This document shows positions 9,074-36,162 of a DNA stretch of 51,176 bases, one piece after another (the stretch's first letter is position 1; the number at the start of each line of letters is the position of its first letter). The notes below the pieces were generated by a model, which ran no database searches, had not been told where the DNA came from, and worked only from the letters and a program-made list of their open reading frames with translations. This DNA is from Candidatus Nomurabacteria bacterium RIFCSPLOWO2_12_FULL_40_42. Lineage in GTDB: Bacteria > Patescibacteriota > Minisyncoccia > Phycocordibacterales > UBA9973. The stretch covers positions 1 through 51,176 of the forward strand of contig MFVS01000024.1 of assembly GCA_001786195.1 (NCBI GenBank), in the 5' to 3' direction. The position numbers were made by a program, and so were the translations under genes.

Positions 9074-9658
9074 TTAATTTGGTTTCGGCTCTTCGGCTTT
9101 GACATCTTTGGCGTGGTCGATAAAGAGGACGCCGTTTAGGTGGTCTGTCTCATGCTGGAAAATCTGCGCGAGCAAACCCGCTGCGCCGCGAGTAAATTTC
9201 TTGCCGTTTTCATCGTAAGCGGTGACGGTGGCCTTGAGGGACCTCCAAGTCTTGCCGTATAGTGGGCGGACCGAAAGACAACCTTCAGGCATCCAAATTT
9301 TTTCCCGGGAAAGTTTAGAAATTTTTGGATTTATGAAAATTAAGTCTTTGGGAACAAAATCTTTCTGTGCGGGGTCGCTATCTGCGCCTTCTGGCGCAGC
9401 GCTGCTTCTCGGCTCGCCAACCTGCGAAACACCCCGTCCAGAAAATTTTGTTCCCAAAACTTTCCCAGACACCACAAAAATCCGCAGTGGATACCCAATT
9501 TGCGGCGCGGCGATAGCCACGCCGTCCCCCTGGCTTTTGAGCGCCTCAGACATTTCTCTTAATATTTTTTTTATTTTAGCTGTTTTTATGTCGCCGATGA
9601 CGACTTCTTTGGCGACTTTACGGAGTATTTTTTCTTCTTTTTGTAAAATTTTCTTCAT
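9074..9658 (-). CDS. def: Peptide deformylase (with ~35-aa in-frame insert)
   Basis: GVAIAAPQIG, EGCLS, QHETDHLNG. Confidence 0.96.
   Translation of the reverse strand: MKKILQKEEKILRKVAKEVVIGDIKTAKIKKILREMSEALKSQGDGVAIAAPQIGYPLRIFVVSGKVLGTKFSGRGVSQVGEPRSSAAPEGADSDPAQKDFVPKDLIFINPKISKLSREKIWMPEGCLSVRPLYGKTWRSLKATVTAYDENGKKFTRGAAGLLAQIFQHETDHLNGVLFIDHAKDVKAEEPKPN
9347..9458. mobile_element. ~112-nt structured mini-element (family B) inserted in frame in def
   Basis: Terminal inverted repeats tttgggaacaaaat/attttgttcccaaa; homologous to 35496-35613. Confidence 0.75.
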
Positions 9659-9665
9659 AATTCTC

Positions 9666-10964
9666 CTACTTCATTTCCTTTAAGTATTCCAGCAATTTTG
9701 GTAGTTTGACTGTATTTTGTGAACGGTTACTCATATCCCGCACGATGACAGAATTATCCAATGCTTCCTTAACTCCAAAAATAAGGGCGTAAGGAATATT
9801 AAGTCGTTCGGCGATGGCGAGCTGGCTCCCTAGGCTGTCTTTCGAAAGAGACTGGGCTATCGGAATATGGGCCTTGCGGAGTATTTCAATTATGTTCAAG
9901 CTTTTTAACCTTGCCTCACTCCCAAGCTGAATGAAATAAATTTTTGGTTTCTTTAATATGCGTGGTGCCAGTTTCTTGTACCAAAGGGAGGCGATGATCC
10001 GGTCGACGCCGATAGATATCCCTACTGCAGGCACGTCTTTTTTTGATCCGATTTGGCGAGCCAAATAGTCATAGCGTCCGCCGCCCGCGAGTGTTAGCGG
10101 CGCGCCGTTTTCTCCGCCTGTTTCCTCGATAATTTCAAAAACAGTGCGGGTATAATAAGAAAGTCCGCGCACTAAATTTTTATTTATATTGTACCCAATA
10201 TTCATTTCTTCCAAATATTCCAATACCTCTTTAAAATGTTTTTTACAGGCAGGACAGAGGAATGAAATCGAGTCCGGGGCATTTTTGTTTATCTCCTTCG
10301 TTTTTTCTTCTTTAGAGTCGAGGATGCGCAACGGATTTATTTTTAAACGTTTGCGGTCAATGGGAGCCAAGTCGTCCACGTGCCTTCGATAATAGCCAGC
10401 AAGTTCTTTGATATAAACATTTCGGCATTCTTTGTCCCCGATGGAATTTAAATCAATCGAAAGATTTTCAGCTCCTGCCTCTTCTAGAATACTTATCCCG
10501 GTTTTAATCACGAGCGCATCCATAATGCTTTTATCACTGCCAAGCGAATCCAGGTCAAACTGCCAAAATTGCCGATAACGGCCGCGCTGGGGTTTGTCAT
10601 GCCTGAACACCGGACCGTATTGGTAGAGCATAACAGGCTGAGGGAAGGTCTGCATTCCGTGTTCGATATAAGCGCGCGCCAACGGAGCGGTGTGTTCTGG
10701 TCGAAGCGCCAAATGGTCTCCGCCTTTGGTTTTTAGCGTATACATTTCTTTGTCCACGATGTCAGTGCCTTCGCCTATTCCGGAGGTAAAAATTTTTTCA
10801 TTTTCCAATATAGGAGTCTCAATTGGCTTAAAACCATAGTATTCCGCCACCTCTTGAGCTTTTTCAAAAAAACCCTGAAAAGCGTAATATTTTTCATTCA
10901 TCAAATCTCTCATTCCTTTGGGCGAGGCAACGTCTTGATTTATATTTTTTATATTTTTTTTCAT
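9666..10964 (-). CDS. hisS: Histidine--tRNA ligase
   Basis: PKGMRD, LRPEHT, FRHDKPQRGRYRQFWQ, LVRGLSYY, GGGRYD. Confidence 0.96.
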   Translation of the reverse strand: MKKNIKNINQDVASPKGMRDLMNEKYYAFQGFFEKAQEVAEYYGFKPIETPILENEKIFTSGIGEGTDIVDKEMYTLKTKGGDHLALRPEHTAPLARAYIEHGMQTFPQPVMLYQYGPVFRHDKPQRGRYRQFWQFDLDSLGSDKSIMDALVIKTGISILEEAGAENLSIDLNSIGDKECRNVYIKELAGYYRRHVDDLAPIDRKRLKINPLRILDSKEEKTKEINKNAPDSISFLCPACKKHFKEVLEYLEEMNIGYNINKNLVRGLSYYTRTVFEIIEETGGENGAPLTLAGGGRYDYLARQIGSKKDVPAVGISIGVDRIIASLWYKKLAPRILKKPKIYFIQLGSEARLKSLNIIEILRKAHIPIAQSLSKDSLGSQLAIAERLNIPYALIFGVKEALDNSVIVRDMSNRSQNTVKLPKLLEYLKEMK

Positions 10965-10997
10965 AATTTTACTTGTTCCGTAGTGAGCTTTGCTCTA

Positions 10998-11603
10998 CTA
11001 CTGGGATTGTTTATCTGATTTTTGATATTGGCCTGGAGATACTCCTATTTTTTTTAGCGGCAGTAAACGCAAGAATGCTTTTCCAGTAATAAATTCTTTT
11101 TTGACCGGCCCCCAAGATCTCGAATCAGAACTGCTACTTCTGTTGTCTCCCATTACAAAATACTCATCACTTGCGAGAGCCACATGTGCATCTATTCCGC
11201 CGATATTTTTTACAAAAGGTTGGTCTAATTCAAACCCGTCCGGATGTTCGTTATTTGTAATTGTGACTTTATTTTGGCTGCTTTCCACGTCGACGGTTTC
11301 ATTTGGTAGGCCGATTATTCTTTTGATGTAATAAACATAAGTTGGTTCAAGCGAGTTGCCAGTTTGATGTTTGAACACTACGACGTCATATCTTTTTGGG
11401 TTGCCTAGTTTATAGGATATCTTATCGACAATCAAATAATTCGCATTATCGAAAATGGGGACCATCGAACTTCCTAATACTACAAACGGTTCCGCCACGA
11501 GAAGGCGAATAGGGACAACTATCAGTATCGCTATGATAGTGAACCGCAAAAGTTCCCAGAATGACTGTCCCTTGGTCGGTTCTTCTATTTTCGTCGGTTC
11601 CAT
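10998..11603 (-). CDS. lepB: Signal peptidase I
   Basis: GSSM.P, YIKRIIGLP, GDNR..S.DSR.WG; start set at ATG 11603, 7 nt after a TGcTATATT box. Confidence 0.93.
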   Translation of the reverse strand: MEPTKIEEPTKGQSFWELLRFTIIAILIVVPIRLLVAEPFVVLGSSMVPIFDNANYLIVDKISYKLGNPKRYDVVVFKHQTGNSLEPTYVYYIKRIIGLPNETVDVESSQNKVTITNNEHPDGFELDQPFVKNIGGIDAHVALASDEYFVMGDNRSSSSDSRSWGPVKKEFITGKAFLRLLPLKKIGVSPGQYQKSDKQSQ

Positions 11604-11704
11604 GTCAATGAATATAGCATAAAATGTCCTTGACATAGTCGTTAAATTTGTGGTATAACTAGAATCTATAACCCAGAACCTAGAACTTTTGCTATCATGT
11701 AATC

Positions 11705-12232
11705 ATGAAATTAGTCGCTGGTTTAGGCAATCCGGGAAAAGAATACGAAAACACACGGCACAACACCGGGCGAATTGTGGTTGGACTGGTGGAAAAAAAA
11801 TTGGAAGACCAAAAAATAAAATTTATTACTCCGGATAATTTTATGAATAATTCCGGTAAGGCCGTCGCCCCATTAGTTAAAACAAAAAAAGATTTGGAAA
11901 ATTTGGTGGTGGTCTATGACGATATTGATCTGCCGCTCGGGAAAATAAAAATTTCCTTCAACCGCTCCGCCGGAGGGCATAATGGTTTGGGTTCAATAAT
12001 CAAAGCTCTCAAAAGCCAAGAATTTTTGCGTATTAGAGTTGGTATTTCTCCCGCCACTCCCAAGGGCGTAGCAAAGAAACCAAAAGGGGAAAAAGCGGTG
12101 ATAAACTTTATTCTAGGTGAATTCAAAAAATCCGAATTGGAAACAATCAAAAAACTTTCCAAAAAAGTCAGCGAAGCAATTGAAACTATTTTCGCCGAAG
12201 GCAAGGATAAAGCAATGTCTCTTTACAATTAA
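11705..12232 (+). CDS. pth: Peptidyl-tRNA hydrolase
   Basis: GLGNPG.EY..TRHN, FMNNSG, DDIDL, GGHNG. Confidence 0.95.
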   Translation: MKLVAGLGNPGKEYENTRHNTGRIVVGLVEKKLEDQKIKFITPDNFMNNSGKAVAPLVKTKKDLENLVVVYDDIDLPLGKIKISFNRSAGGHNGLGSIIKALKSQEFLRIRVGISPATPKGVAKKPKGEKAVINFILGEFKKSELETIKKLSKKVSEAIETIFAEGKDKAMSLYN

Positions 12233-12411
12233 AATAACCATTGACAGGGAATTATATGAAGCTTATAAAATAATGCGTAGCTATGGTGTTTCGGATAACG
12301 ATCTTTTTACTTGAACATGTTTTTAAACTGTAAACTAACTATTTAGCATTAATAAGCGGTCGCGCACTAATGCTATACTAATGCTATTCAGATTTATTTG
12401 CTTCTGAATAT

Positions 12412-12588
12412 TTAGTGAGGGTATGTCCTATTTCTATCTTCTTGCTCTTCGCGCATTTCCTCAACCACAAGTTCTTTTTCTTCGGGATCTAGTTTAGTAT
12501 TTGGACATTTCTTCTCTCTCTTTTTTAAAATATTTTTTTCTAATTCTCTCTTTGTTTTTTTAATTAAATCTAATTGCTCTAATGACAT
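12412..12588 (-). CDS. Small charged hypothetical protein (58 aa, absent from the ORF track)
   Basis: Manual translation MSLEQLDLIKKTKRELEKNILKKREKK...EEQEDRNRTYPH*, directly downstream of dnaE on the same strand. Confidence 0.45.
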   Translation of the reverse strand: MSLEQLDLIKKTKRELEKNILKKREKKCPNTKLDPEEKELVVEEMREEQEDRNRTYPH

Positions 12589-12615
12589 TTTTTTAAAAAA
12601 AGTAATTAATAAAAT

Positions 12616-15600
12616 CTACACCTCTTTCACTGCCTCTATTATAATACTCTTTTCGCCACTGCGCAACGAGACTTTACCCGAGAGGGCTATGCACTTTTCG
12701 GCTACCAGGATACCTATGGATTCTTTGAAGATGGAAGGGAAGCAGACGACTTCGATTGAGCCAGTCAAGTCGGCGATTTTTAGGAAGGCCATTCTTTCGT
12801 TATTTTTTGTTACGACTTGCCTGACATTTTCGATTATGCCGGCGATAGTAACCGGTACTCCATTCCCAATTTCCTCTTTTATTTTTTTTGTGTTCACCTC
12901 CCGGCTTTCTAATTTATTTCGCAGTCGGTCGAGCGGATGCCCAGAAATATACAGCCCCAACAATTCTTTTTCCCAAAGCAGTTTTTCCGCCTGGGTCGCC
13001 TCCGATGCTGGTTTTAATTTAAAAACTGGAACGGATTGTTTTAGGTTGCCAAAAAGCGAAGTCTGGTTGGCATTTTGCGTCGATGTCTCGCGGTGGTAGG
13101 CGAGCATATCTTCCAGATTCGCAAGCAGGACTCCGCGATCCGCCCATTTGTCAATACAGCCGGATTTGATCAACGCCTCCATCGATTTTTTATTTAAATT
13201 TTTATGTTTGATTCGGCCCAGAAAGTCAGCGATGGATTTAAATTTACCATTTGTTTTACGCTCCCGAATAATAGTGTCCGAAATATCCGTCCCTAAATTT
13301 TTTATGGTATAAAACCCAAACCTTATTTTTTTACTTTTATTGTTTTTATTTATTTTGCCTTCTTTCTCCGGTTCGCCTCGCTCTTGTTCCGGCGAAGCAG
13401 GTAAACAGGTGAAGCCCCCATAGCTCTCATTTATGTTTGGGGGTAAAACTGGTATTTTCATATTTCTACACTCTTCAATTATTTCCGCAATTTTTTCCAC
13501 ATCTCCTGATTCAGCGGTCAGAATAGCCGCCATATACTCCACTGGATAATTGGCTTTCATATAAGCCGTCTGGTAGGCGACCTTTCCGTAAGAGGCGGCG
13601 TGCGCTTTGTTGAATCCATAGGCTTGAAATGGTTCAAAAAGTTTCCAGAGTTTTTCCGCGAATTCCGGAGTCTGGCCATTGGAAATGATTCCCTTGGTGA
13701 ATTTTTCTCTTTGGGCGGCCATCTCTGCTGGGATTTTCTTACCGACGGCCTTGCGGAATTTGTCTGTTTCTTCCCAGTTGTAGCCGGCAAGTTCAATCGC
13801 GCAAAAGAGCAGGTCGTCTTGGTACACGATGAGTCCATAAGATTCTCCCAAGAATTTTTTCATCCGTGGATCCAAATATTTCACCAGTTTCGGATTATGT
13901 TTTCTTTTTATATATTCCGGGATAATTTCCATAGGGCCGGGGCGATACAGGGCAACCATGGCGTTGATGTCATGAATCGAAGTTGGTTTTAATTCTTTCA
14001 AATATCGAGTCATGCCGCTACCATTTAATTGAAAGAGCCCTTCGGTTTGTCCAGAAGCCAAGAGTTCAAAAGTTTTCTTATCGTCGAGCGGTATTCGCTC
14101 AATGTCTATATCTATGTTGTAGAAATTTTTTACCAAACTGACCGCATCGGCTAAAATTGCTAAATTTCGGATACCCAGAAAATCAAATTTTAAAAGTCCG
14201 GCACCACCACCATAGTCTGGGTCAAGAGAATACATGTCATATTGAGTAATTATGGCTTCACCCTTGGGATCATATTGAAGTGGAGTGTATTCCGTCAGGG
14301 GCAGGGGAGAGATGACCACTCCCGCCGCATGTACCGAGATGTGTCGGACGCAGCCTTCGAGTTTTTTTGCTAAGTCTATTATTTTTTTTGTATCCACTTC
14401 TTCCTTGTAGGCTTGAGCCAACTCGGGTACTATCTCCATAGCATGATCTAGAGTCATCGGCATACCTTGTGAGCCGAGCGGAATCATTTTAGAAAGTCGG
14501 TCACCGATGGTGTATGGATATCCCAGTGCTCGGGCGACGTCGCGGACGGCGCCGCGGGCCATCATTGTGCCGAAGGTTCCCACTTGAGCCACTTTATCTT
14601 CTCCATATTTTTTCTTTACATATTCAATCATTTCATCCCGCCGATTATCGGCAAAATCCATGTCGATATCTGGTGCCGAGGGACGGTATGGATTCAAAAA
14701 TCTTTCAAACGGCAGTTTGTAGGCTATGGGGTCTACATTGGTGATCCCGAGGAGGTAGGTCGTCATCGAGCCAGCCACCGATCCCCGGATCGTGGTCAAA
14801 ATTCCATTTTCTTTGGCGTAGCGCATAAGGTCTCCCACTACCAGAAAATATGGCGCGTAGCCTTTGTCTTTAATAATTTTTAATTCGTACTCGACTCTTT
14901 CTTTTAATTCCGGTGTGGCGTTAAGTTTTAATCTATTGAAGCCATCATAAGCAAGATGGCGCAATTCTTCATCGTAACTTTTCCCAGATTCAATTTTAAA
15001 ATCCGGGAAAACCCATTTTTTAAGTTCCAGTTCCAGATCACACATTTCCGCTATTTTCATAGTGTTGGTGACTGCTTCCGGAATATCTTTAAAAACTTCG
15101 AGGGCTTTCGCTGTATCGATAAAAGAAAAATCATCGTCAGAAAATTCGAATTTTACTCCATCTTTTACATCGCCTTGGGTGTTTATTTGCAGTAGAGTAT
15201 GGTGCGCATCATGATCATCACTACAAGGATAATGCGAGTCTTGTGTTCCAACAATATCTACATTGTGTTTCCTTGCCAGCTTGATCAGATTTTCTCGCAC
15301 CATTTTGTCACTTTCCACTGATGGATGACACTGAATTTCTATAAAGTAATTTTCTTTGCCAAAAATATTTTGATATTCCTGCACCAGCGCGTCGGTTTTT
15401 TTTGAATCGCCTTTTAAAACTGTCTGAGAAAGTTCACCGCCCAAGCATCCCGAGAGGGCAATAAGACCGCCGGAATATTTTCGCAGGATTTCTTTGTCCA
15501 TCCTAGGCTTGTAATAATATCCCTCCAAGTTAGCGATTGTTACCAACTTCATCAGATTCTTGTAACCTTGCAAATTTTTCGCGAGTAAAGTCAAGTGGTA

Positions 15601-15882
15601 ATATCTTTTAACGCCTCCAGCTTCGGCGGTTCGATCCGTCCGACTTCCAGCCGTCATGTATGCTTCTACTCCGATGATCGGCTTAATTCCTTCTTTTTTT
15701 GCGAGTTTATAAAATTCAATAGCGCCATACATATTGCCATGGTCAGTGATAGCCATCGCCGGCATGTTGAATTTCTTGGCCAGGGCCACTAGATCCTCAA
15801 GCTTAGAAAGGCCGTCCAATAGGGAATAGTGCGAGTGGGTATGGAGGTGGACGAATTGTGGGGTTTCGGATTCTTTTTGCAT
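12616..15882 (-). CDS. dnaE: DNA polymerase III alpha subunit
   Basis: [16 protein letters not shown] domain, [19 protein letters not shown]-terminal OB fold. Confidence 0.97.
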
Positions 15883-15904
15883 TTCTGTATAATAACATAT
15901 TACT

Positions 15905-15980
15905 TAACCCCCTGAATCCCCCTTATCAGGGGGACTTTCTGAATTTTTCCTCCCTTGATAATGGGAGGCTAGGAGGGGTT
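15905..15980. repeat. Intergenic composite of family A palindromes
   Basis: tccccttatcagggggac and cctcccttgataatgggagg inside aacccc...ggggtt ends. Confidence 0.75.
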
Positions 15981-16029
15981 GTATTTTATGATATACTTAA
16001 ACTATTATAATTTATTTATTAAAAAATTT

Positions 16030-16323
16030 ATGAAAAAAAGATATTGGTTGAGGGTCGGTTCTGTATTCTTTGTAGTTAGTTTAATTGTAAGCTCGTATGC
16101 TGCATTTTTAATGTTACAAAATACTGCAAGAGTTAGTGTTATTAGTCAACCTCAACCTTTTGATATTATAGATTATTTACATTTTATCCCTGGTATTAAT
16201 TCTCTCATCTGAGGACCTATTGGAATAATTATCGGTGTGATAATACTATCTTTACTATATGGACTCGTTGGAGCAATAATTGGTGGATTATATGGTAAAA
16301 TTAAAAATAGAAATAAAATTTAG
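16030..16323 (+). pseudogene. Small membrane protein (MKKRYWLR...YGKIKNRNK family) interrupted by in-frame TGA at 16210-16212
   Basis: Reading through the TGA gives GPIGIIIGVIILSLLYGLVGAIIGGLYGKIKNRNKI*, matching the C-terminus of paralogue 18484-18687. Confidence 0.7.
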
Positions 16324-16369
16324 ACAGGAACGGTATTGACAATATCATAACAATGTATATACTTGTAAT

Positions 16370-16642
16370 ATGACTACACAAATAATGTTTAAAATAGAAA
16401 ATAAGCTCAAAAAAGCAGCCCAGAAGAGAGCAAAAAAAGAAGGGATCACCCTCAGTGATTTTTTTCAGTCGGCTACTCGGTCCTTCATAGAAGGACGTTT
16501 GAACGTGGGTCTTACAGGAGAGGATATGCAGGAAGATTTTGAAATGTATAATTCTATAAATTATAAAAAAAGCATAGCCAGGGCCAGAAAATCAAAAAAG
16601 TTTTATACTAGTTCGCAACTCTACAAAAAATTAGGGTTATAA
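16370..16642 (+). CDS. Putative antitoxin (RelB/ribbon-helix-helix-like)
   Basis: N-terminal beta-alpha-alpha pattern, directly upstream of a RelE-like toxin; own TTGACA/TATACT promoter. Confidence 0.7.
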   Translation: MTTQIMFKIENKLKKAAQKRAKKEGITLSDFFQSATRSFIEGRLNVGLTGEDMQEDFEMYNSINYKKSIARARKSKKFYTSSQLYKKLGL

Positions 16643-16645
16643 TAT

Positions 16646-16897
16646 ATGCGTTACTTGGTTACCTCCGAGGGGGTAAAAACTTTATCAATACTTCCAAAAT
16701 CAATTCAGAAAAGAATTCTTCAAAAGTTGGATTTTATTTTTAAAACCAGTAATCCGCTTAATTTCTCGAAAAGGCTCGAGGGTTTTGAATTTGGTGATTA
16801 TCGTATGAGGATAGGAGATTATAGAGCTTCTTTTGATGTAAGACAAAATACGGCTTATTTTTTAAGATTTGGGCACAGAAAAGATTTTTATAAATAA
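16646..16897 (+). CDS. RelE/ParE-family toxin
   Basis: YRMRIGDYR and GHRKDFYK C-terminal motifs, 83 aa. Confidence 0.87.
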   Translation: MRYLVTSEGVKTLSILPKSIQKRILQKLDFIFKTSNPLNFSKRLEGFEFGDYRMRIGDYRASFDVRQNTAYFLRFGHRKDFYK

Positions 16898-16920
16898 AAA
16901 TACATGTTATAATATTGACT

Positions 16921-18018: not shown

Positions 18019-18488
18019 ATTTATGAATAGACAAAAAGTTTTAAATTGGATTGGAGGAATTTGGTTTGTGGTGAATCTACCGATTCTTCCTTTTGTTGGA
18101 CCGGCAGTTTATGCAATTTTAGGTAATTATTTTTTTGACCAAAGAGTGCCATATGCGGTTGTCACGCTCATTGTGTTCACAACATTTTTGGTTTTGAGTA
18201 AAAGCTGGTCGGGTAAATATATGAAAACGCCTGTAATTTTGTCTGTGATTGTATTTCTTTATGCAACTTTGCAATTGGTGGTGGTTCAAGATTTTTTAGT
18301 AACACATCGACCCCTACTTTTTTGGATAATATTTGTAGTATTGGTTAGTGTAATTTGTATAGCAGTTATAAAAGCAATGCGTGGAGAACTGAATAAATAA
18401 AATTTTAGTTTTCGCAAGAGTTTTCGCAAGAACCGTTCTTGCGACAGGTGTTATTAAAACAGGTAATTCTATAAAATAAATTTATGAA
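17992..18488 (+). repeat. 36-bp direct repeats (17992-18027, 18453-18488) flanking a membrane-protein gene
   Basis: attaaaacaggtaattc(a/t)ataaaataaatttatgaa, one mismatch. Confidence 0.88.
18023..18400 (+). CDS. Hypothetical membrane protein (about 4 TM segments)
   Basis: Hydrophobic stretches throughout the 125-aa ORF. Confidence 0.7.
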   Translation: MNRQKVLNWIGGIWFVVNLPILPFVGPAVYAILGNYFFDQRVPYAVVTLIVFTTFLVLSKSWSGKYMKTPVILSVIVFLYATLQLVVVQDFLVTHRPLLFWIIFVVLVSVICIAVIKAMRGELNK

Positions 18489-18687: not shown

Positions 18688-18695
18688 TTTCAAAA

Positions 18696-19004: not shown

Positions 19005-19048
19005 GTTATCCACTTGCATAATATAACGCATATGTTATACTCTTAAGT

Positions 19049-25035: not shown

Positions 25036-25036
25036 A

Positions 25037-26708: not shown

Positions 26709-26722
26709 GATATGATTATAAC
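26709..26722. promoter_or_regulatory. Overlapping divergent -10 boxes for apparently leaderless dprA and serS
   Basis: Plus strand TATGAT-6nt-ATG(26723); minus strand TGtTATAAT-6nt-ATG(26708). Confidence 0.6.
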
Positions 26723-27997: not shown

Positions 27998-28024
27998 AAG
28001 ATGAAAGTGTGAAATAATGAATTT

Positions 28025-28258
28025 ATGACAAAAGTTATCAACATTAATGAACGAGGTACACTGACATTACCTAAGGAAATGCGGCGTATTTTCGGTGGTA
28101 AGAGCCTTAATCAGGTAATTGCCGAAGAAACAAACGAAGGCATTTTGTTGCGTGTCGGAGCTACTTTCCCTGTGGAATTATATTCTGAAAAGCGGCTAGA
28201 AGAATTTCGTCAAAACAACGAAAAAGCTCTTTCTGGGTATCGCTTCAATAAGAAATGA
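28025..28258 (+). CDS. AbrB/MazE-type antitoxin
   Basis: INERGTLTLPKEMR; ATGA overlap with PIN gene. Confidence 0.82.
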   Translation: MTKVININERGTLTLPKEMRRIFGGKSLNQVIAEETNEGILLRVGATFPVELYSEKRLEEFRQNNEKALSGYRFNKK

Positions 28259-28653
28259 GAATTTTTCTAGATGCTAATATCCTTTTTTCAGCAGCCCAAT
28301 CGGGAAGCCGAATGAGTGATTTTTTGGATGTACTTTTTGATCAGGCGAATTGTCTGACGAATGTTTGTGCTGTGGAAGAAGTAAGACGCAATTTAGAATT
28401 AAAATCTCCGGAAGTCCTCTATCGTTTGGATGAGCTAGTCAAAAAATGCAAACTTATTTCCGCAATCGCTACTGATTTAAAAGTCGACTTATCCGCAAAA
28501 GATATTCCAATTCTCGGCGGAGCAATTGCTGGACAAGCGACACACCTTTTGACTGGTGATAAGCGAGATTTTGGTGTTTATTTCGGCAAAACAATTCAAG
28601 GAGTAAAAATTGTTTCGCCTATAATGCTGGTTAAGGAGTTGAAGTTGTCATAA
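28255..28653 (+). CDS. PIN-domain (VapC-like) toxin
   Basis: FLDANILFSA, KD.PIL..A, LLTGDKRDF. Confidence 0.88.
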   Translation: MRIFLDANILFSAAQSGSRMSDFLDVLFDQANCLTNVCAVEEVRRNLELKSPEVLYRLDELVKKCKLISAIATDLKVDLSAKDIPILGGAIAGQATHLLTGDKRDFGVYFGKTIQGVKIVSPIMLVKELKLS

Positions 28654-28679
28654 TACTTATTCATGTTACAGTTACTTAT

Positions 28680-29495
28680 ATGAAAGGTCGAAACATTTTA
28701 AATTCTCCACGGCTTTTGGAGTTAAAGAGAAAGAGGCGCCGGATTTTTTTCGGCAAGTTTTTGCTGGTTGTATTTTCTTTGGCGACTATTTTTGCTGGTT
28801 TGATTTATCTTTCTCGCCTGTCGGCTCTAAACATTAAGGAAGTAAAGATAATATCGAGCGGAGCGATAGATGCGCCCACAGTAAAAACTGCTGTCGAGAC
28901 AGAAATTACCGGAAATTATTTATGGTTTTTACCAAAAACTAATATTTTATTTTACCCGAAAAAGAAAATCGAAACAGAATTGTATCATAAATTTAAAAGG
29001 ATCAAGGACATAGACATATCTATCAAAGATCAAAAAATATTAGAAGTACAACTAACCGAGCGAGAAGCAACTTACCTCTGGTGCGAGGAACCCGAAAAAT
29101 GCTCTTTTATGGATAGTAGCGGCTATGTTTTCGACACGGTGCCGTATTTTTCCGGCAATGTGTATTTCAAATTTTTCGGGCCGCTCTCCGGAGACAATTT
29201 TGCTCCCGAAATTTTCGATAAAGTTATTGCTTTTAAAAATACGCTTCTAGACCTGGGTATCAAGCCGACGTCTCTTTACCTGGTGGGTGAAGACATTGAA
29301 ATTTATCTTTCTTCAAAATCCCCCTACTCTCCTAAAATAATATTTAAAAAAGATTTTAACTTGGAGGCAATTTCAGAAAACCTGCAAACTGCTTTGGATG
29401 CCGAACCCTTGAAATCAAATTTCAAAAATAAATATGCTTCACTAGAATATATCGACCTGCGATATGGAAATAAAGTTTACTATAAATTCAGATAA
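28680..29495 (+). CDS. FtsQ/DivIB-like cell division protein
   Basis: Basic N-terminus, single TM helix, POTRA-like region, C-terminal YIDLRYGNKVY. Confidence 0.75.
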   Translation: MKGRNILNSPRLLELKRKRRRIFFGKFLLVVFSLATIFAGLIYLSRLSALNIKEVKIISSGAIDAPTVKTAVETEITGNYLWFLPKTNILFYPKKKIETELYHKFKRIKDIDISIKDQKILEVQLTEREATYLWCEEPEKCSFMDSSGYVFDTVPYFSGNVYFKFFGPLSGDNFAPEIFDKVIAFKNTLLDLGIKPTSLYLVGEDIEIYLSSKSPYSPKIIFKKDFNLEAISENLQTALDAEPLKSNFKNKYASLEYIDLRYGNKVYYKFR

Positions 29496-30523
29496 TGAAA
29501 AATTTCTGGAAAGAACTCAAAAAACCTTTTTTCTGTCTGGCGCCGATGTCGGATGTTACTGATGTTGCTTTTCGCCGCATCATAGCTAAATACAGCAAGA
29601 ACAGGGAAAATAGAAACAGGATTGTTTTTTGGACTGAATTCGTATCAGCGGATGGTTTGTGCGACAAGCTTGGCAGAAAAAAATTGTCGCATATGCTTGA
29701 ATTTAGCGAGGCGGAAAGACCTATCGTGGCTCAACTTTTTGGTGCCAACCCGGAGAATATGAAAAAGGCTTGCCAATATGTCGCCAGCCTTGGTTTTGAC
29801 GGAATTGATATAAATATGGGTTGCCCGGACAGATCGGTAGTCAGTCAGGGGGCTGGAGCCGGTATGATAAAAAATCCCGAGCGGGCGCGTAAGATAATCC
29901 AAGCAGTCCACGCCGGAATCAAAGCGGCGGGATTAAATATTCCTGTATCGGTAAAAACCAGAATCGGTTTTAATAAAGAAGAAATAGATACTTGGATTCC
30001 AGAACTTTTAAAAGAAAACATCGCCGCTCTGACGATTCATTTGCGTACTTCCAAAGAATTGTCTCTTGTTCCGGCACAATGGGAATATATACAAAAAATA
30101 AAAGAACTTATAAAAAATAGTGGGAAAGAAATTTTACTCATCGGTAACGGCGATGTTAAAGACATTGACGACGGGAGGAAGAAATGTGAAGAATACGGTT
30201 GCGATGGAGTAATGCTCGGGAGAGCGATGTTTGGAAATCCTTGGGTTTTTGCCTGTCAAAGAGACACTTTGACACAGAATCAGATGTCAAAGTGTCTCTT
30301 TGACAAAACTACAGAAGAAAAACTTCGCGTCATGGTCGAACACACCAAACTTTTTGAAAAAATGCTCGGGGCTCACAAAAATTTCGCCATTATGAAAAAA
30401 CATTTCAAGGCGTATGTAAATGGCTTCGATGGAGCAAAGGAATTGCGGGTGAAATTGATGGATACCGTTGATGCAAAGCAGGTGGAAGCTGTAGTGAATG
30501 AATTTTTAATAAAAATAGGGTAG
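29495..30523 (+). CDS. dus: tRNA-dihydrouridine synthase
   Basis: LAPM, TEFVS, DINMGCP, SVKTRIG, GNGD, MLGR. Confidence 0.94.
   Translation: MKNFWKELKKPFFCLAPMSDVTDVAFRRIIAKYSKNRENRNRIVFWTEFVSADGLCDKLGRKKLSHMLEFSEAERPIVAQLFGANPENMKKACQYVASLGFDGIDINMGCPDRSVVSQGAGAGMIKNPERARKIIQAVHAGIKAAGLNIPVSVKTRIGFNKEEIDTWIPELLKENIAALTIHLRTSKELSLVPAQWEYIQKIKELIKNSGKEILLIGNGDVKDIDDGRKKCEEYGCDGVMLGRAMFGNPWVFACQRDTLTQNQMSKCLFDKTTEEKLRVMVEHTKLFEKMLGAHKNFAIMKKHFKAYVNGFDGAKELRVKLMDTVDAKQVEAVVNEFLIKIG
30254..30305. repeat. 21-bp-arm palindrome (two inverted small hairpins) in frame inside dus
   Basis: tgtcaaagagacactttgaca-10nt-tgtcaaagtgtctctttgaca. Confidence 0.88.
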
Positions 30524-30532
30524 AATAATCTC

Positions 30533-31627
30533 ATGCATGATTTGGCATTATATCGCAAATACCGCCCGATAAGCTTCGAAGAAGTCTTGGGGCAGGATCA
30601 TATCGTAAAGGTCTTGGAAAGCTCTGTAGAGACGAATAAGGTCTCGCATGCTTACCTTTTTGTGGGTTCGCGGGGCACGGGCAAGACTTCGGTGGCTCGG
30701 ATTTTTGCTAGTGCTATAGGTGTGTCGGCAAATGATTTGTATGAGATAGACGCTGCCTCGAACAGGGGAATCGAAGACGTCAAGCTCCTGCGCGATGGGG
30801 TACGGGTTCTGCCTTTTGATTCCAAATATAAAGTTTTCATCATTGATGAAGTGCACATGCTCTCCAAGGATGCTTGGGGCGCACTGTTAAAAACTCTGGA
30901 AGAGCCGCCGAAGCATGTCATTTTTATTTTAGCCACCACGGAGCTGCAGAAAGTTCCAGAGACAATTATTTCCCGCTGTCAGGTCTTCACTTTCAAAAAA
31001 GCATCCGACACCGCTCTCAAAAAAATGTTGATGGATGTCGCCAAAGCTGAAGGCTTTGAATTGGATGTCGGCAGCGCCGAGCTTTTAGCAATTTTAGCCG
31101 ATGGATCTTTCCGCGACGGACTAGGGGAATTGCAAAAAGTTTTAAATTTCCACCCCACCCTTCGCCCTCCCCTTGACAAGGGGAGGGTTGGCGAGAGGTC
31201 TGTAAAAATTACTAGAGAAGACGTGGAATCGATCACCGGCGCGCCGAAGACCACGCTGGTGAATAATTTTATTTCCTCGATTGCCGAAAAAAATATAGAG
31301 AAAGGGATTTTGGCAGTGCAAACTGCGGCAGAAGAAAATTTGGATATGCGGCTTTATCTCAAACTCATCATCGAAAAATTCCGCCTGGCGATAATCTTGC
31401 GCTATGCGCCAAAATTATTGGATGGCAGCCTCCCTGCCGGTAGGCAGGGAGATATATCGGAAGCTGATTTGAAATTTTTGCAAGAACTGGTGAAAAAAGA
31501 CTCGGGGGGAATGCTCCGCTCGCCGGCCATATCTACCCTGTTAGAAAGTTACCAAGACATAGATAACGCATTTATAGCCGAATTGCCGCTAGAGCTGGCA
31601 TTAATAAAAATTCTGGGTGAGAATTAA
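30533..31627 (+). CDS. dnaX: DNA polymerase III gamma/tau subunit (short form)
   Basis: LYRKYRP, GSRGTGKT, EIDAAS, IIDEVHML, TIISRC. Confidence 0.95.
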   Translation: MHDLALYRKYRPISFEEVLGQDHIVKVLESSVETNKVSHAYLFVGSRGTGKTSVARIFASAIGVSANDLYEIDAASNRGIEDVKLLRDGVRVLPFDSKYKVFIIDEVHMLSKDAWGALLKTLEEPPKHVIFILATTELQKVPETIISRCQVFTFKKASDTALKKMLMDVAKAEGFELDVGSAELLAILADGSFRDGLGELQKVLNFHPTLRPPLDKGRVGERSVKITREDVESITGAPKTTLVNNFISSIAEKNIEKGILAVQTAAEENLDMRLYLKLIIEKFRLAIILRYAPKLLDGSLPAGRQGDISEADLKFLQELVKKDSGGMLRSPAISTLLESYQDIDNAFIAELPLELALIKILGEN

Positions 31628-31670
31628 ATTTGTCTTTGACCAAAAGCCCTTTTTCGGTTAAGATGAGCTG

Positions 31671-32945
31671 ATGAGACAATCACAACTTTTTACTAAAACT
31701 AGGAAGGAGGCATCTTCCGAGGAGGTTTCCCGCAATGCCGAACTTCTCATACGCGGCGGTTTTATTCACAAGGAGCTCGCAGGGGTTTATAGTTATCTGC
31801 CCTTAGGATTACGAGTGCTCAAGAAAATTGAAAATATCATCAGAGAGGAAATGAACAAGGTGGGCGGCCAGGAAGTTTTGATGTCCTCGATGCAACCAAA
31901 AGAAAATTGGGAAAAAACTGGTCGCTGGGAGACCATGACAGATTTATATAAAGTGAGCGACATCTCGGGCAGAGAGGTTGCGCTCGGGCCGACTCACGAA
32001 GAAATTGTCGTGCCAATTTTGAAAAATTATGTTTCTTCCTATAAAAATTTTCCTAAAAATTCTTCTCTGGCTATTTATCAGATTCAAAACAAGTTTCGGA
32101 TGGAACTCCGAGCTAAAAGTGGCATCTTGCGGGGTCGCGAATTTATGATGAAAGACATGTATTCATTTCATACCTCTGCAGAGGATTTTGAAAAATTTTA
32201 TGAAAAAATGAAGGAGATTTACAAAACCATTTTCGACCGGGTTGGGATTGGCCACTTGACTTATCTCACTTTTGCTTCCGGCGGCACTTTCTCCAAATAT
32301 TCGCACGAATTTCAGACCATCACTTCGCTCGGAGAGGATACCATTTATATTGATGAAGCTAGCGGCACCGCTCTTAATAAAGAAGTGTTGAATGATGAAG
32401 TTTTGATCCAGTTTCATTTAATCAAAGAAAAATTGGTGGAGCATAAATCCATCGAAGTTGGAAATATTTTTGATCTTAAAACAAAATATTCCAAGCCCTT
32501 CGACCTGTCTTTTACTGACGACCAAGAGCAAAAACACCCAGTTTTAATGGGTTGTTATGGCATTGGGCTCTCCCGTCTCATGGGGACGGTGGTGGAAGTT
32601 CTTTCCGACGACAAAGGCATTATTTGGCCGGAATCTATCGCGCCCTTCCAGGTTCATTTGCTTGCGCTCGGTGAAGATAAAGAGGTAAAAGAGCAAGCTG
32701 GGAAAGTTTATGAAAGTTTAGAGAGGAATAATATTGAAGTTTTGTTCGACGATCGTGAGGGTATATCGGCTGGCGAAAAATTTGCCGATGCAGATCTTCT
32801 AGGTATGCCTTACCGAGTAGTTGTGTCAGAGAGGAGTCTGAAGGAGAAGGGCGTAGAGATAAAAAAAAGGAATGAAGAAAAAGGCAAAATTATTTCTTTC
32901 AAAGAATTATTAGCCCAGATAGCGCCTAAAGCCCTATCTATCTAG
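31671..32945 (+). CDS. proS: Proline--tRNA ligase (short form without editing domain)
   Basis: MRQSQLF, LGPTHEE, R.REF.MKD.YSF, MGCYGIG.SR. Confidence 0.95.
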   Translation: MRQSQLFTKTRKEASSEEVSRNAELLIRGGFIHKELAGVYSYLPLGLRVLKKIENIIREEMNKVGGQEVLMSSMQPKENWEKTGRWETMTDLYKVSDISGREVALGPTHEEIVVPILKNYVSSYKNFPKNSSLAIYQIQNKFRMELRAKSGILRGREFMMKDMYSFHTSAEDFEKFYEKMKEIYKTIFDRVGIGHLTYLTFASGGTFSKYSHEFQTITSLGEDTIYIDEASGTALNKEVLNDEVLIQFHLIKEKLVEHKSIEVGNIFDLKTKYSKPFDLSFTDDQEQKHPVLMGCYGIGLSRLMGTVVEVLSDDKGIIWPESIAPFQVHLLALGEDKEVKEQAGKVYESLERNNIEVLFDDREGISAGEKFADADLLGMPYRVVVSERSLKEKGVEIKKRNEEKGKIISFKELLAQIAPKALSI

Positions 32946-32984
32946 ATAGGGCTTTAGGCGCTATCTGCAAGGCGCTATCTGCAA
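32916..32984. repeat. Perfect 25-bp-arm palindrome plus 14-bp tandem duplication; supplies the proS stop codon
   Basis: cagatagcgcctaaagccctatcta-tc-tagatagggctttaggcgctatctg, then aggcgctatctgca x2. Confidence 0.9.
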
Positions 32985-32986
32985 CT

Positions 32987-34033
32987 ATGTTCGAAAAAAT
33001 TTACAAATTAATTTCTAACGACATCGGCATCGACTTAGGCACTTCCAATACCTTAGTGTATTTGAAAGGCCACGGCATTGTTATCAATGAGCCTTCAGTG
33101 GTGGCTGTCAATATCAAGACCAATCAAGTTCTGGCTGTCGGCGCTAAAGCTAAAGAGATGCTTGGCCGCACCCCAGGGCATATCAAGGCCATTCGTCCAT
33201 TAGTGGACGGCGTCATCTCGGACTTTGAAGTTACCGAAGAAATGCTTTCGTATCTGATTAATAAGGCGGATAAAATGTCAAAAAAATTAGCGCGGCCAAG
33301 AGTTTTGGTCGGGGTACCGACTGGCACCACAAATGTGGAAACGCGCGCGGTTTACGATGCGGCCTGTTCGGCTGGCGCGCGTGAAGTTTTCTTGGTAGAA
33401 GAGCCTATGGCGGCGGCGATCGGGGTGCGGCTGCCAATTAAGGATCCGGTCGGCTCAATGATCATCGACATCGGCGGGGGTACGACGGATATTGCCGTGA
33501 TTTCTCTTGGAGGAGTGGTGAAGTCCAAAAACTTAAAAATAGCCGGTGATAGATTGAACGACGATATAATTACCTATATGCGCGATGAATTTAAAATATT
33601 GGTGGGCGAGCGGACTGCTGAGATGGTCAAGATTGCGATTGGTTCGGTTATTCCCGGGGAATATATGGAGGCTGAAGTGCACGGACGGGATATTTTAACT
33701 GGCTTGCCTCGGGCGGTGACCGTGACGGATTCGGATATTCGCGAAGCTCTCGCATTCTCTATCAGAGAATTATGCGACGGGGTGAAAGATATGTTGGAGA
33801 CGACCCCTCCGGAAATTTTGTCGGACATCATGCATCGAGGCATCAATCTCTCTGGCGGCGGGGCCCTGATCTCCGGGCTCGACCAACTATTGCAAAGCGT
33901 TCTAAAAATTCCGGTATACGTGGTGGAAGATCCGCTTTCGGCGGTGGCCCGCGGGACCGGAATAATCCTAGATGATCTGTCATTTTTTAAAGAAGTTCTG
34001 ATTGGAAATCAAGATGAGTTACCTCCTCGATAA
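32987..34033 (+). CDS. mreB: Rod shape-determining protein MreB
   Basis: IGIDLGT.NT, EPSVVA, EEPMAAAIG, DIGGGTT, LSGGGA. Confidence 0.96.
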   Translation: MFEKIYKLISNDIGIDLGTSNTLVYLKGHGIVINEPSVVAVNIKTNQVLAVGAKAKEMLGRTPGHIKAIRPLVDGVISDFEVTEEMLSYLINKADKMSKKLARPRVLVGVPTGTTNVETRAVYDAACSAGAREVFLVEEPMAAAIGVRLPIKDPVGSMIIDIGGGTTDIAVISLGGVVKSKNLKIAGDRLNDDIITYMRDEFKILVGERTAEMVKIAIGSVIPGEYMEAEVHGRDILTGLPRAVTVTDSDIREALAFSIRELCDGVKDMLETTPPEILSDIMHRGINLSGGGALISGLDQLLQSVLKIPVYVVEDPLSAVARGTGIILDDLSFFKEVLIGNQDELPPR

Positions 34034-34832
34034 AAAAATACAAAGAAAGAAAATTTTATACGCCGTATTTTCGGCTATCATTTTGCTCGTCTTATTTTAT
34101 TTTAGATTCGGTTTGTGGAATGGTCTCGCTTATTTCTCCCATACCGTTTTTCGCCCGATTTTGATTTTTGGGAATAATGTTGGTGGAAAATTAAACAGCG
34201 CCCGTTCATATTTTGCTTCCAAAAATTCTCTTTACCTTGAAAATCAAAATTTACAGTCTAAAATAACTGAAAATGAAGCCAGAATGTCAAATTACAATTC
34301 TCTTTTGTATGAAAATGAGAATCTAAAAGAAATTCTGGACAGAAAAGATGAAAAAACAAAGGTGGTTTTAGGGAGCATTTTATCAAAGCCGAACCAAAGC
34401 CCATACGACACTTTAGTTCTCGACATCGGCGCCGATCTAGGCATAAAATCGGGCGAGAGAGTTTTGGCTTTGGGCAATGTGCTGATTGGGAGGATCGCAA
34501 ACATTTACCACAATTCTTCAAAAGTGATTTTGTTTTCGAGTAACGGCGAAAAAACGCAAGTCGTAGTTGTTGAAAAAAACCTGCCTGCCGGTAGGCAAGG
34601 TGTTTTTTTGGAACTAGTCGGGCGCGGGGGCGGGAATTTTGAAATGATCATGCCGAGAGACTTAAAGTTAGAGAAAGGAGACCAAGTAGTTTTGCCTGGA
34701 ATTATCCCCTATGTGGTCGGGATTGTGGAAACCATCATTTCTGACCCGCGCGATCCTTTTGTGAAGGCTCTTCTTACCAGTCCGGTCAATATACAGGAAT
34801 TGAAATTCGTGGAGGTAGAGACGCAAAAGTAA
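34014..34832 (+). CDS. mreC: Rod shape-determining protein MreC
   Basis: TM helix, coiled coil (EN..L), follows mreB; start set at ATG 34014. Confidence 0.88.
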   Translation: MSYLLDKKIQRKKILYAVFSAIILLVLFYFRFGLWNGLAYFSHTVFRPILIFGNNVGGKLNSARSYFASKNSLYLENQNLQSKITENEARMSNYNSLLYENENLKEILDRKDEKTKVVLGSILSKPNQSPYDTLVLDIGADLGIKSGERVLALGNVLIGRIANIYHNSSKVILFSSNGEKTQVVVVEKNLPAGRQGVFLELVGRGGGNFEMIMPRDLKLEKGDQVVLPGIIPYVVGIVETIISDPRDPFVKALLTSPVNIQELKFVEVETQK

Positions 34833-36162
34833 TGCATTTTAAAATTAAAAAAAAATTTCCGCCCGAGACGGATCCGCCTTTAGTGGAAAAAAATATTTAG
34901 GACGTGCAGGAATCTTGACAACTGCGCATGGCGTGATTCATACTCCGGCCTTTGTGCCGGTCGGGACCAAGGCGAGCGTGAAGGCCTTGACCCCAGAGCA
35001 GGTTTTAGACCTTGGCGCGGAAGTTATACTTGCTAATACTTATCATCTTTATTTACAGCCTGGGGATGAATTGGTGGCCGCGACCGGCGGCTTGCACAAA
35101 TTTATGAATTGGCCGGGTCCTTTGATGACGGACTCCGGAGGTTTTCAAGTTTTTTCTTTAGGGGCGGCTTATGGGAAAGAAATCTCAAAGATAAGACCCT
35201 TACCCAACCTCCCCCTTATCAAGGGGGAGGAGAAAGGAGGGGGTGCTGATGATTCAGATGCGCCTCGCCTGGCCAAAATAGGGTCTGACGGCGTCTCCTT
35301 CAAGTCGCATTTGGACGGTAGTGTTCATTACATTACGCCGGAGAAATCGATCCAAATTCAGCACAACCTCGGCGTGGATATAATTTTTGCATTCGACGAA
35401 TGCACTAGCCCAGCCGAAAATTTGAAATATCAAGAAGAAGCACTGGAGCGGACGCACAGATGGGCGGAGAGGAGTTTGGAGGAGCATAAAAGATTAAGCG
35501 CGGAAGAAAAAGCTTTCCTTGCGGGGTCGCTATCTTCGCGTGCTCGCGGAGCGTTGCCTCTCGGCTCGTCAGCCTGCGAGACACCCCACAATGAAACTTT
35601 TTCTTCCGCGCTTTTTGGCATCGTCCAAGGCGGGCGGGATGAAAATTTACGCAAGAGATCTGCAAAATTTTTAAGCGATTTGGATTTTGACGGATATGGC
35701 ATTGGCGGTTCATTTGCCAAAGAGGATATGTTTTCCACTGTCAAATGGGTGAACGAAGTTCTCCCCGAAGACAAACCCCGGCATCTCCTCGGCATCGGCG
35801 AGCCGGAAGATCTATTCGGGGCGATAGAAAATGGCTGTGATTTATTTGACTGTGTCGTGCCCACTCGGATTGCTCGCAATGGCCAGCTTTATACCCGGCA
35901 AGGAAAAATAAATATAACCAACGCTAAATATAAAAAAGACTTCAACCCTCTGGAAGAAGACTGTGGTTGTTATACTTGCAAAAGTTATACTTGCGCATAC
36001 ATTTCCCACCTTTTCCGCGGCAAAGAAATGCTGGCGGCAACTCTCGCTTCGATACACAATTTATATTTCATTGTGAATTTAGTGAAAAAAATCCGGCAAT
36101 CTATTCTAGATGGTAAATTTTTCGAGTTTAAGGAGGAGTTTTTGAAAAAGTACCCAAATTAG
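34832..36162 (+). CDS. tgt: tRNA-guanine transglycosylase; N-terminus out of frame at an A9 run (34847-34855)
   Basis: TPAFVPVGT, NTYHL, TDSGGFQ, GIVQGG, FDC..PTR, C.C..C Zn site; upstream LGRAG motif and ATG 34832 join only with one extra A. Confidence 0.9.
35496..35613. mobile_element. ~118-nt structured mini-element (family B) inserted in frame in tgt
   Basis: Terminal inverted repeats aagcgcggaagaaaaag/ctttttcttccgcgctt; homologous to 9347-9458. Confidence 0.75.

Follow-up and report, generated by a model that had tools for sequence, protein, structure and literature searches.

The described systems closest to the repeat that is the subject of this report are the Rickettsia palindromic elements (RPEs), reportedly published by Ogata in 2000 and 2002, and the REPIN/RAYT and Y1 systems, which are said to have been treated by Nunvar in 2010, by Bertels and Rainey in 2011 and by Ton-Hoang in 2012. 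A published review records RPEs as inserted in frame in many unrelated genes (PMC10969869). A second source (Di Nocera et al., 2013; PMC3733652) defines repetitive extragenic palindromic (REP) sequences as imperfect palindromes of 20-40 bp, one end of which bears a GTAG or CGTC tag that is unpaired, and places intragenic GTAG/CGTC REPs in uvrA/B/D, polA, recBCD, tRNA synthetase and pseudouridine synthase genes. Here we describe a hairpin element of ~115 nt that occurs in def and in tgt of a 51,176-nt stretch of DNA (the window) from Candidatus Nomurabacteria bacterium RIFCSPLOWO2_12_FULL_40_42. The element is multi-copy, lies in unrelated genes, is present, absent or inverted at orthologous sites and has undergone a fresh burst in one genome. 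We consider it probable that the def and tgt copies represent a mobile DNA element, non-autonomous and hairpin-forming, akin to RPEs and to miniature inverted-repeat transposable elements, or MITEs, that is translated with its host genes and, as part of the same explanation, that the family is specific to a Nomurabacteria-like genus (Parcubacteria, candidate phyla radiation [CPR]) and patchy in its order. No published account of such elements in CPR/Patescibacteria turned up in our search of literature listings.

Two copies of one branched hairpin in def and tgt

The first copy is a whole hairpin of 112 nt (9347..9458, + strand) inside def, the peptide deformylase (PDF) gene, which is an intact open reading frame (ORF) of 194 aa on the minus strand (9074..9658; PF01327). 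It is antisense to the gene, and its predicted translation is ..LGTKFSGRGVSQVGEPRSSAAPEGADSDPAQKDFVPK... The second, of 118 nt (35496..35613, + strand), lies in the sense direction inside tgt, an intact ORF of 415 aa for queuine tRNA-ribosyltransferase (TGT; 34915..36162, + strand; PF01702), and its predicted translation is ..SAEEKAFLAGSLSSRARGALPLGSSACETPHNETFSSA... The conserved core of copy 1 (9368..9436, + strand) consists of a GGGGU/ACCCC closing stem, the hairpin P2 (9382-9399, CTGCGCC-ttct-GGCGCAG), a CUC/GAG stem and the hairpin P3 (GGCT-cgcc-AACC, with one C-A mismatch), and that of copy 2 (35520..35588, + strand) was delimited by the core alignment and by metagenome contig boundaries. 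Covariance model R1, described below, scored the copies at 123.1 bits (9340-9464) and 124.2 bits (35492-35616), respectively.

When the two copies were aligned, mean column identity was 81% over 156 columns, and the 16-mer TGCGGGGTCGCTATCT was found to be exact at 9368 and 35520. At 32128, a further match that differs at three positions lacks a surrounding hairpin and was taken as chance; with up to three mismatches allowed, 0.17 matches were expected from shuffles and three were reached in 0 of 100. Folding energies were -58.2 kcal/mol for copy 1 (z -9.5) and -61.1 kcal/mol for copy 2 (z -7.1), and the reverse strands of both also fold (z -7.8 and -8.2). The outer stems (9347-9360/9445-9458 and 35496-35512/35597-35613) are self-complementary and mutually unlike. 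The initial annotation had proposed a ~115-nt structured element common to def and tgt, and both stretches were as it described, down to the intact ORFs and the quoted peptides. It had also placed the two copies in opposite orientations, which is true relative to the host genes only; on the DNA both lie on the + strand and have the same orientation.

Contigs assembled from four DNA runs (the runs holding the locus are groundwater and soil metagenomes) had a summed depth over 35516-35603 that exceeded the flanking depth ~5- to 30-fold. Those that derive from other loci or organisms matched 35522-35591 and then diverged into unlike sequence. This provides an independent mark of the repeat core and shows that the element breaks assemblies. 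No joint across the element and no strand-change joint was present among the contigs of the four runs, which by their nature cannot show rare forms.

A conserved core between variable arms

Across the family, a conserved core of ~70 nt with the stems P1, P2 and P3 lies between arms of 14-25 bp that differ among copies. Reading inward, the long arm stem continues into GGGGU/ACCCC and then into a two-pair GC/GC stem; P2 has 7 bp and the loop TGCT, and it is followed by the CUC/GAG stem and by P3, with 4-5 bp and the loop CGYC. The 25 copies of alignment A2, from which R1 was built, align gap-free, and RNAalifold assigned them 42 pairs, 32 of which have double changes that keep the pair. A larger alignment (A4), fitted to the covariance model, holds 90 strong copies (at least 100 bits) from 45 genomes of the genus; the highest-ranking hits and genomes with several copies were favored, so that the set is not a random one. 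In this alignment, 93.9% of cells were paired, compared with 72.4% in shuffles (0 of 500 reached the observed value) and with at most 49.8% when the partners were slid. The junction and loop bases were invariant or nearly so across the 90 copies. The compensatory changes first noted between the two window copies are real.

The outer stem was different and yet self-complementary in every copy found by BLAST. Among the 90 copies, the arm/P1 region was paired in 90.6% of cells, with double changes in 22 of 25 pairs. The initial annotation was right that the outer stems differ and still pair within each copy; they are not unrelated, though, as their inner halves appear to come from a common terminal inverted repeat.

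We also observed variant subfamilies with an AT-rich P2 and a different P1, in which the motif TTCTCGGCTCGYCAGCCTGCG and the three-stem layout are kept. These occur in the genome of the window (G000; C8:52789-52914, C5:8509-8630, C17:7822-7943 and C19:15556-15677) and at loci L015, L016 and L037-L044. Many are intergenic, and some lie in frame (tsaD and an aminopeptidase-N-like ORF).

Copy number and distribution

A BLAST search of the window's own genome with the core returned just the two window copies, and a third strong copy, antisense in recG (C4:6229-6353), surfaced only with R1. The model also matched the four weaker variants of this genome, two of them in frame (C19:15556 in tsaD and C17:7822 in the aminopeptidase-N-like ORF) and two outside long ORFs (C8:52789 and C5:8509). 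BLAST of the core gave strong matches in 9 of 60 relatives, all of the same genus. Within that genus, R1 matched 129 of 151 genomes at E <= 0.001 and left 22 without a match; the ~638 matches, at 1-22 per genome, are the sum of 150 listed and 488 more, and the tally takes in the unpublished genomes G084 and G146. In the rest of the order, 22 of 150 genomes had matches, patchily across families; beyond the order, two weak matches turned up among 150 genomes of the phylum. The core pattern had 0 matches in IMG/VR viral contigs.

Nothing in Rfam matched the element at gathering level. In E-value mode, the best score was 23.6 bits against a gathering score of 150, and the matches were to miRNA-hairpin and sRNA fragments and to generic hairpin models. 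A covariance-model search of genome, genus, order, phylum and Rfam, the check proposed in the initial annotation, therefore produced many further copies and no Rfam family, which agrees with the annotation's description of the repeat as uncharacterized. The sole gathering-level matches to Rfam in the window were RNase P RNA class A (38146-38481, + strand, 122 bits) and a tRNA (1881-1952, - strand).

Host genes and reading frames

All but one of the 90 strong copies (89/90) lie within a stop-free frame of at least 100 aa, 51 in sense and 38 in antisense orientation to the host. When the 86 distinct host ORFs were scanned against Pfam, 84 were assigned to families, of 15 kinds: TGT (20), UvrD/PcrA (18), TsaD (13), class I aminoacyl-tRNA synthetases (aaRS; 7), PDF (6), UvrB (4), RecG (4), Fmt (3), CCA/poly(A) polymerase (2), MnmA (2) and, with one host each, KsgA, PolA, a pseudouridine synthase, a deoxyhypusine-synthase-like protein (DS) and a cyclase-like protein (SQHop). 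The two ORFs without a Pfam family (L034 and L036) are short and are probably not genes.

Each orientation is read in one frame. The sense reading, ..GSLS....ALPLG.S.CETP.., was present in 48 of 51 sense copies (the exceptions being L036, L185 and, in part, L081), and the antisense reading, ..G(V/L/I)SQ....PRGSA....DSDP.., in 38 of 38 antisense copies. Over the whole hairpin, stops occurred in 5/89 and 4/89 copies in the two used frames and in 23-60/89 copies in the other four; Gly, Ser, Ala, Pro, Asp and Glu together made up 58-64% of residues in the used frames and 32-36% in the others. The tgt copy of genome G005 (L081) has a 2-nt deletion, after which it passes temporarily into another frame and then returns, and the gene stays open. 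From these open frames we infer that the insert is probably read through by the ribosome. The same DNA read as two unrelated peptides bears out the earlier proposal of conservation at the nucleic-acid level, and 89 open frames in 90 copies fit the suggestion that the element is tolerated within its genes.

Alignment to solved structures placed the insertions in the host proteins. Residues 66-101 of Def (36 aa, element included) replace 11 residues of a solved PDF, chain 1sv2_A, which aligned in two blocks (query 2-65 to chain 3-65, and query 102-187 to chain 77-161). In TGT, the element makes up residues 191-225, which on alignment to a solved structure of this enzyme (4hsh_A, three blocks) are inserted between positions 184 and 190 of the chain. 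An AlphaFold2 model of Def, made with 26 close relatives, was set aside for its low mean pLDDT (44.6).

Class I aaRS genes of the genus (L130, L181, L189; L035, L165, L178) were seen to carry extra Pfam domains. A NUDIX domain lies inside a LeuRS-like ORF, and the open frame of an IleRS/ValRS-like catalytic domain continues into a histidine-phosphatase domain (His_Phos_1).

Occupied, empty and inverted alleles at orthologous sites

Clustering by flanking protein sequence resolved 21 sites, 6 of which were occupied in both orientations (sense/antisense: tgt 16/4, uvrD 6/10, tsaD 6/7, def 2/4, recG 1/3 and fmt 2/1). In genome G155, two copies 500 nt apart in one TGT gene have opposite orientations. 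By our own arithmetic on the columns of A2, the two used frames map exactly onto each other when the hairpin is inverted about its axis: the first bases of sense codons fall on columns 0 mod 3, and the reflection i -> 127-i moves them to 2 mod 3, which is the antisense frame observed. A flip between the arms, or a reverse insertion at the same point, would consequently keep the gene open.

The tgt span from FDEC to GIVQG measured 47-51 aa when empty (six genomes) and 79-82 aa when filled, and the length of the def loop ranged from 62 to 88 aa. Among 37 tgt loci, 12 had the element in sense and 4 in antisense, 6 were empty and 15 held other inserts, one of these being a type-A copy with a 2-nt deletion. 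Mapping of the site states onto a TGT tree computed without the inserts gave 17 changes, no saving over shuffled labels (mean 18.5), with the states scattered across the tree, and well-supported branches joined an empty with a filled allele. Empty alleles of both tgt and def, which the initial annotation had suggested for comparison, were thus found in close relatives; the many loci, the presence and absence at orthologous sites and the burst described below agree with its proposal that the element is mobile.

Most of the other tgt inserts are also long-armed hairpins with different cores, and some loci hold two elements. At least four such inserts with unrelated cores were seen at the tgt site (L084-L116, L194), one of which reads ..SQDLLLRNVDRSPE.., and double or nested inserts were seen at L115, L116, L140 and L194. 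The uvrD gene of genome G015 (L013) has, around ..ATKILEILDSSATEQFF.., a different insert of 40 aa (..RSSGRPHKNSLKVRAQPDTQKLFGGY..) where other species carry the element (uvrD site 1); this gene carries the element at a second uvrD site.

A second in-frame palindrome was noticed in the tgt gene of the window, CCTCCCCCTT-atc-AAGGGGGAGG (35208-35230), which encodes ..NLPLIKGEE.. and sits in a stretch of 34 aa (TGT residues 85-118, ~35167-35268) missing from the solved TGT of Z. mobilis. Metagenome depth is also raised over 35208-35251, which marks the small palindrome as another multi-copy repeat. The 34-aa stretch ends in ..GGADDSDAP.., a faint echo of the antisense peptide of the main element.

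A recent burst in G210 and the nature of the arms

G210, a genome from another family of the order, has 12 matches, of which ~10 have identical arms (CTGTCCGGGGAAAATTCTCTTTTT and its complement). These copies have unique flanks and mostly no long ORF across them. A 17-nt pattern from the arm (CTGTCCGGGGAAAATTC..) occurred 19 times, compared with 0 for a control, and only as pairs ~98 nt apart or as single arms. That ~10 copies share identical 24-nt arms indicates a recent burst, and that they do so at unrelated loci shows that the arms can travel with the core, as a mobile unit of ~114 nt. The core was found in both orientations relative to the outer bases CATAG..TAGTG. Two G210 copies (L215:1249-1403 and L216:1208-1360) have in common an additional ~30-nt hairpin (CCCCGCCTGCGCCGAGGCTTCGGCGGGCAGG), nested after the CUC strand and before P3.

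The arm consensus of the window's genus agrees with the G210 arms at the conserved columns, and the arms have diverged within that genus: inner-arm identity was 0.64 within and 0.50 between sites, and outer-arm identity was 0.44 and 0.29. Our reading is that the arms are probably diverged terminal repeats that have been kept complementary.

Y1 transposases as candidate mobilizers

Matches to PF01797 (Y1_Tnp) above the cut-off were found in each of five element-rich genomes tested (5 in G000, 3 in G098, 5 in G085, 3 in G132 and 3 in G210). None of DDE_Tnp_1, DDE_3 and rve was found in G210, and their occurrence in the other genomes tested was sporadic. Y1 is therefore the sole transposase class found in all five, which makes it a candidate mobilizer; enzymes of the Y1/HUH type act on hairpins in single-stranded DNA (ssDNA). 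The best NCBIfam family of the Y1 ORFs was the REP-associated tyrosine transposase (RAYT), at no more than 66.2 bits against a cut-off of 80, and a Y1/RAYT-like link to the element is a guess on our part.

The 767-kb genome of the window contains five Y1/HUH ORFs of 225-252 aa (C18:20929, C13:445, C28:689, C5:19812 and C9:12172; L220-L224), each with a perfect hairpin or terminal inverted repeat of its own on either side. The hairpin of the C5 ORF has 5 copies in this genome, and that of the C9 ORF occurs at 4 loci. The single Y1 match among 2376 ORFs from the element loci was at a locus without a type-A copy. When R1 was run next to 11 Y1 loci, it returned only weak generic hairpin matches of at most 23.2 bits. 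We also compared the motif GGGGWSAS, reported for TIR-associated Y1 transposases (TIRYTs) in PMC3733652, and rejected it as a link, since GGGGTCGC and GGGGTGTC are each one base off. The terminal inverted repeats of the C18 ORF (GGGGACAG..) fit the motif and share CTGTCC with the G210 arms, a likeness too short to count.

A probable translated hairpin element and the alternatives

We envisage a unit of ~110-114 nt in which terminal inverted repeats of ~24 nt enclose the 70-nt core with its three-stem junction. The copies that survive would be those inserted in permissive surface loops with the frame kept, in one of two stop-free readings rich in Gly, Ser, Ala, Pro, Asp and Glu, so that the element would end up translated as a loop of 30-40 aa in housekeeping enzymes, as in the case of RPEs. 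Inversion of the core between its arms, like insertion in either direction, might leave the gene intact. The arms would drift from the original terminal repeat and be kept complementary by a process at the DNA level, candidates for which are correction of one arm on the template of the other and selection for a hairpin in DNA or ssDNA; a process at the RNA level would not fit. The invariant junction and loop bases may form the surface recognized by a mobilizer. Such templated correction between arms is known as a mutational process in quasi-palindromes, and it would keep arms paired without selection.

Several of our results weigh against this explanation. At orthologous sites, core identity was 0.81-0.86, far above the 0.50-0.57 at flanking third codon positions; a purely selfish copy of long residence should have decayed. 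Either a small number of permissive sites see rapid replacement of copies, or selection acts on the core in place; turnover, together with the alignment of only model-matching copies, may explain the high identity. Core identity was 0.817 within and 0.811 between genomes, so that recent spread within genomes is not visible in the genus of the window. Gene conversion among the copies of one genome was considered on the same figures and on identical P2 stems (13.9% vs 9.4%), and was found to be weak at best. The TGT tree is weakly resolved, with 5 of 34 inner branches well supported, and translation of the insert is deduced from the open frames by themselves. No longer, autonomous unit with the G210 arms was present among the arm matches in that genome. 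Of the 12 G210 copies, 3 lie between direct TAG/CTA repeats and 2 between such repeats with a single mismatch; in the others the repeat is missing or masked. A target-site duplication, if this is one, would be more in keeping with a DDE than with a Y1 enzyme. No Y1 gene was located within 1.2-1.5 kb of ~130 element loci, and the Y1 genes examined are flanked by simple hairpins of their own and not by the element.

The initial annotation had left room for a structured RNA, possibly removed from the mRNA, and an RNA acting in or excised from the host message (a cis-regulator, a ribozyme or an intron-like sequence) would account for the very stable folds (z -7 to -9.5), for the strong covariation in P2, P3 and the arms and for the conserved loop and junction bases. 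A functional RNA should, however, tolerate G-U and not A-C pairs, and the 90 copies have no such wobble bias on either strand: the inner stems contain 1495 Watson-Crick, 18 G-T and 14 A-C pairs, and the arms 1427, 28 and 66, respectively, which argues for maintenance of the structure in DNA. An element that acted in the host message would moreover be expected in one orientation, and the 51 sense and 38 antisense copies again point to maintenance of DNA. Removal from the mRNA is not supported either, since an excised element would need no constraint on frame or stops and no compensation, and 89 of 90 copies keep an open frame, with one frame per orientation and, in L081, a compensated 2-nt deletion. 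With no Rfam family to place it in, we regard an RNA role as very improbable; judged from its pairs and frames, the element appears to be neither a structured RNA nor an intron, and its structure to be kept on both DNA strands or as duplex symmetry. A hammerhead ribozyme was considered as well, as CUGACGAG on the reverse strand recalls its core, and was rejected: the string lies within the covarying P3, is not conserved and has no GAAA or cleavage-site context. Selection of the insert as a protein module, for the function of its peptide, would fit the single frame per orientation and the hydrophilic peptides rich in small residues, and is scarcely credible, because a given site in a given protein receives unrelated peptides from the two orientations, nucleotides rather than residues are conserved and empty alleles are common. 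It is also quite improbable, if somewhat less so than an RNA role, that the arms were made from the target or grew outward by fold-back or template-switching, with resident hairpins attracting others into their apex. On its side are the outermost columns, chance-like between sites (0.29) and yet paired in 71-83 of 90 copies; the right arm at tgt, which overlaps the conserved Ala-Leu of ALFGIVQG and is mirrored by the left arm; the excess of filled over empty tgt, which at 29-33 aa is less than the 38 codons of a full G210 unit; similar left arms at tgt (..ENQKQ..) with different cores; the double or nested inserts; and the two G210 copies with a nested 30-nt hairpin. Against it, G210 copies share 24-nt arms at unrelated loci, the inner-arm columns of the genus share a consensus with those arms, and sister taxa can differ in arms and core alike.

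A further alternative is that the core is a functional DNA or ssDNA site selected in each copy, with mobility ancient or secondary; a host protein or a domesticated HUH enzyme might bind or process this site, and its placement in repair and tRNA-modification genes would then be no accident. This would explain why cores at orthologous sites exceed third codon positions in identity, why junction and loop bases are near-invariant and the structure is kept in either orientation, and why both the architecture and the CTCGG..CGTC..CCTGCG motif persist in the variants whose P2 is AT-rich. The hosts are mostly nucleic-acid enzymes, a bias also given for intragenic REPs of other phyla in PMC3733652. 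Copy number nonetheless ranges from 0 to 22 per genome, 22 of the 151 genus genomes and most of the order have no match, close relatives have empty tgt and def alleles, and unrelated hairpin inserts occupy the same sites. Moreover, the conservation estimate is biased toward model-matching copies, and the G210 copies are a plain burst mostly outside long ORFs. We therefore consider a selected site to be unlikely, and the translated mobile hairpin remains the explanation that we prefer. As a speculation to which we likewise give a low probability, the core may be a maintained DNA or ssDNA structure, recognized by an HUH/Y1 enzyme or another factor, of a self-contained, 'gene-safe' hairpin transposon of ultra-small bacteria that has evolved two stop-free readings with matched frames, inserts, flips and leaves harmlessly within essential genes, prefers DNA-repair and tRNA-modification genes and drives the evolution of protein loops. 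In a stronger form of this speculation, resident hairpins might be landing pads on which successive unrelated hairpin families accumulate at single sites, the tgt loop among them.

Significance and comparison with known systems

The genomes of CPR/Patescibacteria are among the smallest and most streamlined, yet this genus bears up to 22 copies of a 110-nt repeat, in essential genes, and further hairpin families occupy the same sites. The element explains many insertions of 30-40 aa in CPR proteins that disturb alignments, domain calls and structure predictions, and its repetition breaks assemblies. The host-gene bias shared with other hairpin repeats (uvrB/D, polA, recG, aaRS and tRNA-modifying enzymes) hints at a general rule for their location. 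The frame-paired, flippable design, with complementary arms and no RNA signature, offers a natural system for palindrome maintenance in DNA, and the covariance model can serve as a marker for tracking lineages and their exchange of mobile DNA.

With RPEs the element shares the form of a palindromic repeat of ~100-150 nt in a small-genome bacterium, in frame in unrelated housekeeping genes, with a conserved peptide that is apparently translated and may lie where the fold tolerates it. It is of the RPE kind in palindrome size, in copy number and in its in-frame insertion into unrelated conserved genes. It differs in phylum, and no relation in sequence to RPE-1 to RPE-10, with which it was compared by description, is known. 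It also differs in its use of both orientations at the same sites with paired frames, in its branched three-stem core with an invariant junction and site-specific arms, and in that strong copies in the CPR genus are nearly all genic (89/90).

Intragenic REPs resemble the element in their kinds of host (UvrD, UvrB, RecG, PolA, aaRS and pseudouridine synthase), in the uncertainty over the transposase and in the presence of Y1 genes in the genome, and differ as simple tagged hairpins of 20-40 bp from the three-stem unit of ~110 nt found here. A CGTC-tagged REP was considered and rejected, as the CGTC of this element is the loop of P3 and not an end tag. REPIN/RAYT and TIR-associated Y1 systems likewise combine a hairpin repeat, several single-copy Y1/HUH genes flanked by hairpins and DNA-level behavior; here, in contrast to REPIN/RAYT, no RAYT gene flanked by the same repeat was found and the Y1 proteins fall below the NCBIfam cut-off for RAYTs. 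By size, tag position and RAYT linkage, then, the element is not a REP. Bacterial MITEs such as Correia/NEMIS, ERIC and RUP are, according to PMC10969869, small, non-coding, multi-copy sequences with a long hairpin and some in-frame fusions, and the ~24-nt terminal inverted repeats of the G210 copies are within their 15-30 bp range. Unlike in MITEs, no autonomous partner with the same ends was found in G210 and the core is conserved and structured rather than filler, so that the definition of a MITE applies only in part. Taken together, these comparisons, which for RPEs were made by description, place the element as a new family with a new architecture within a known kind, that of selfish palindromic DNA that is apparently protein-coding.

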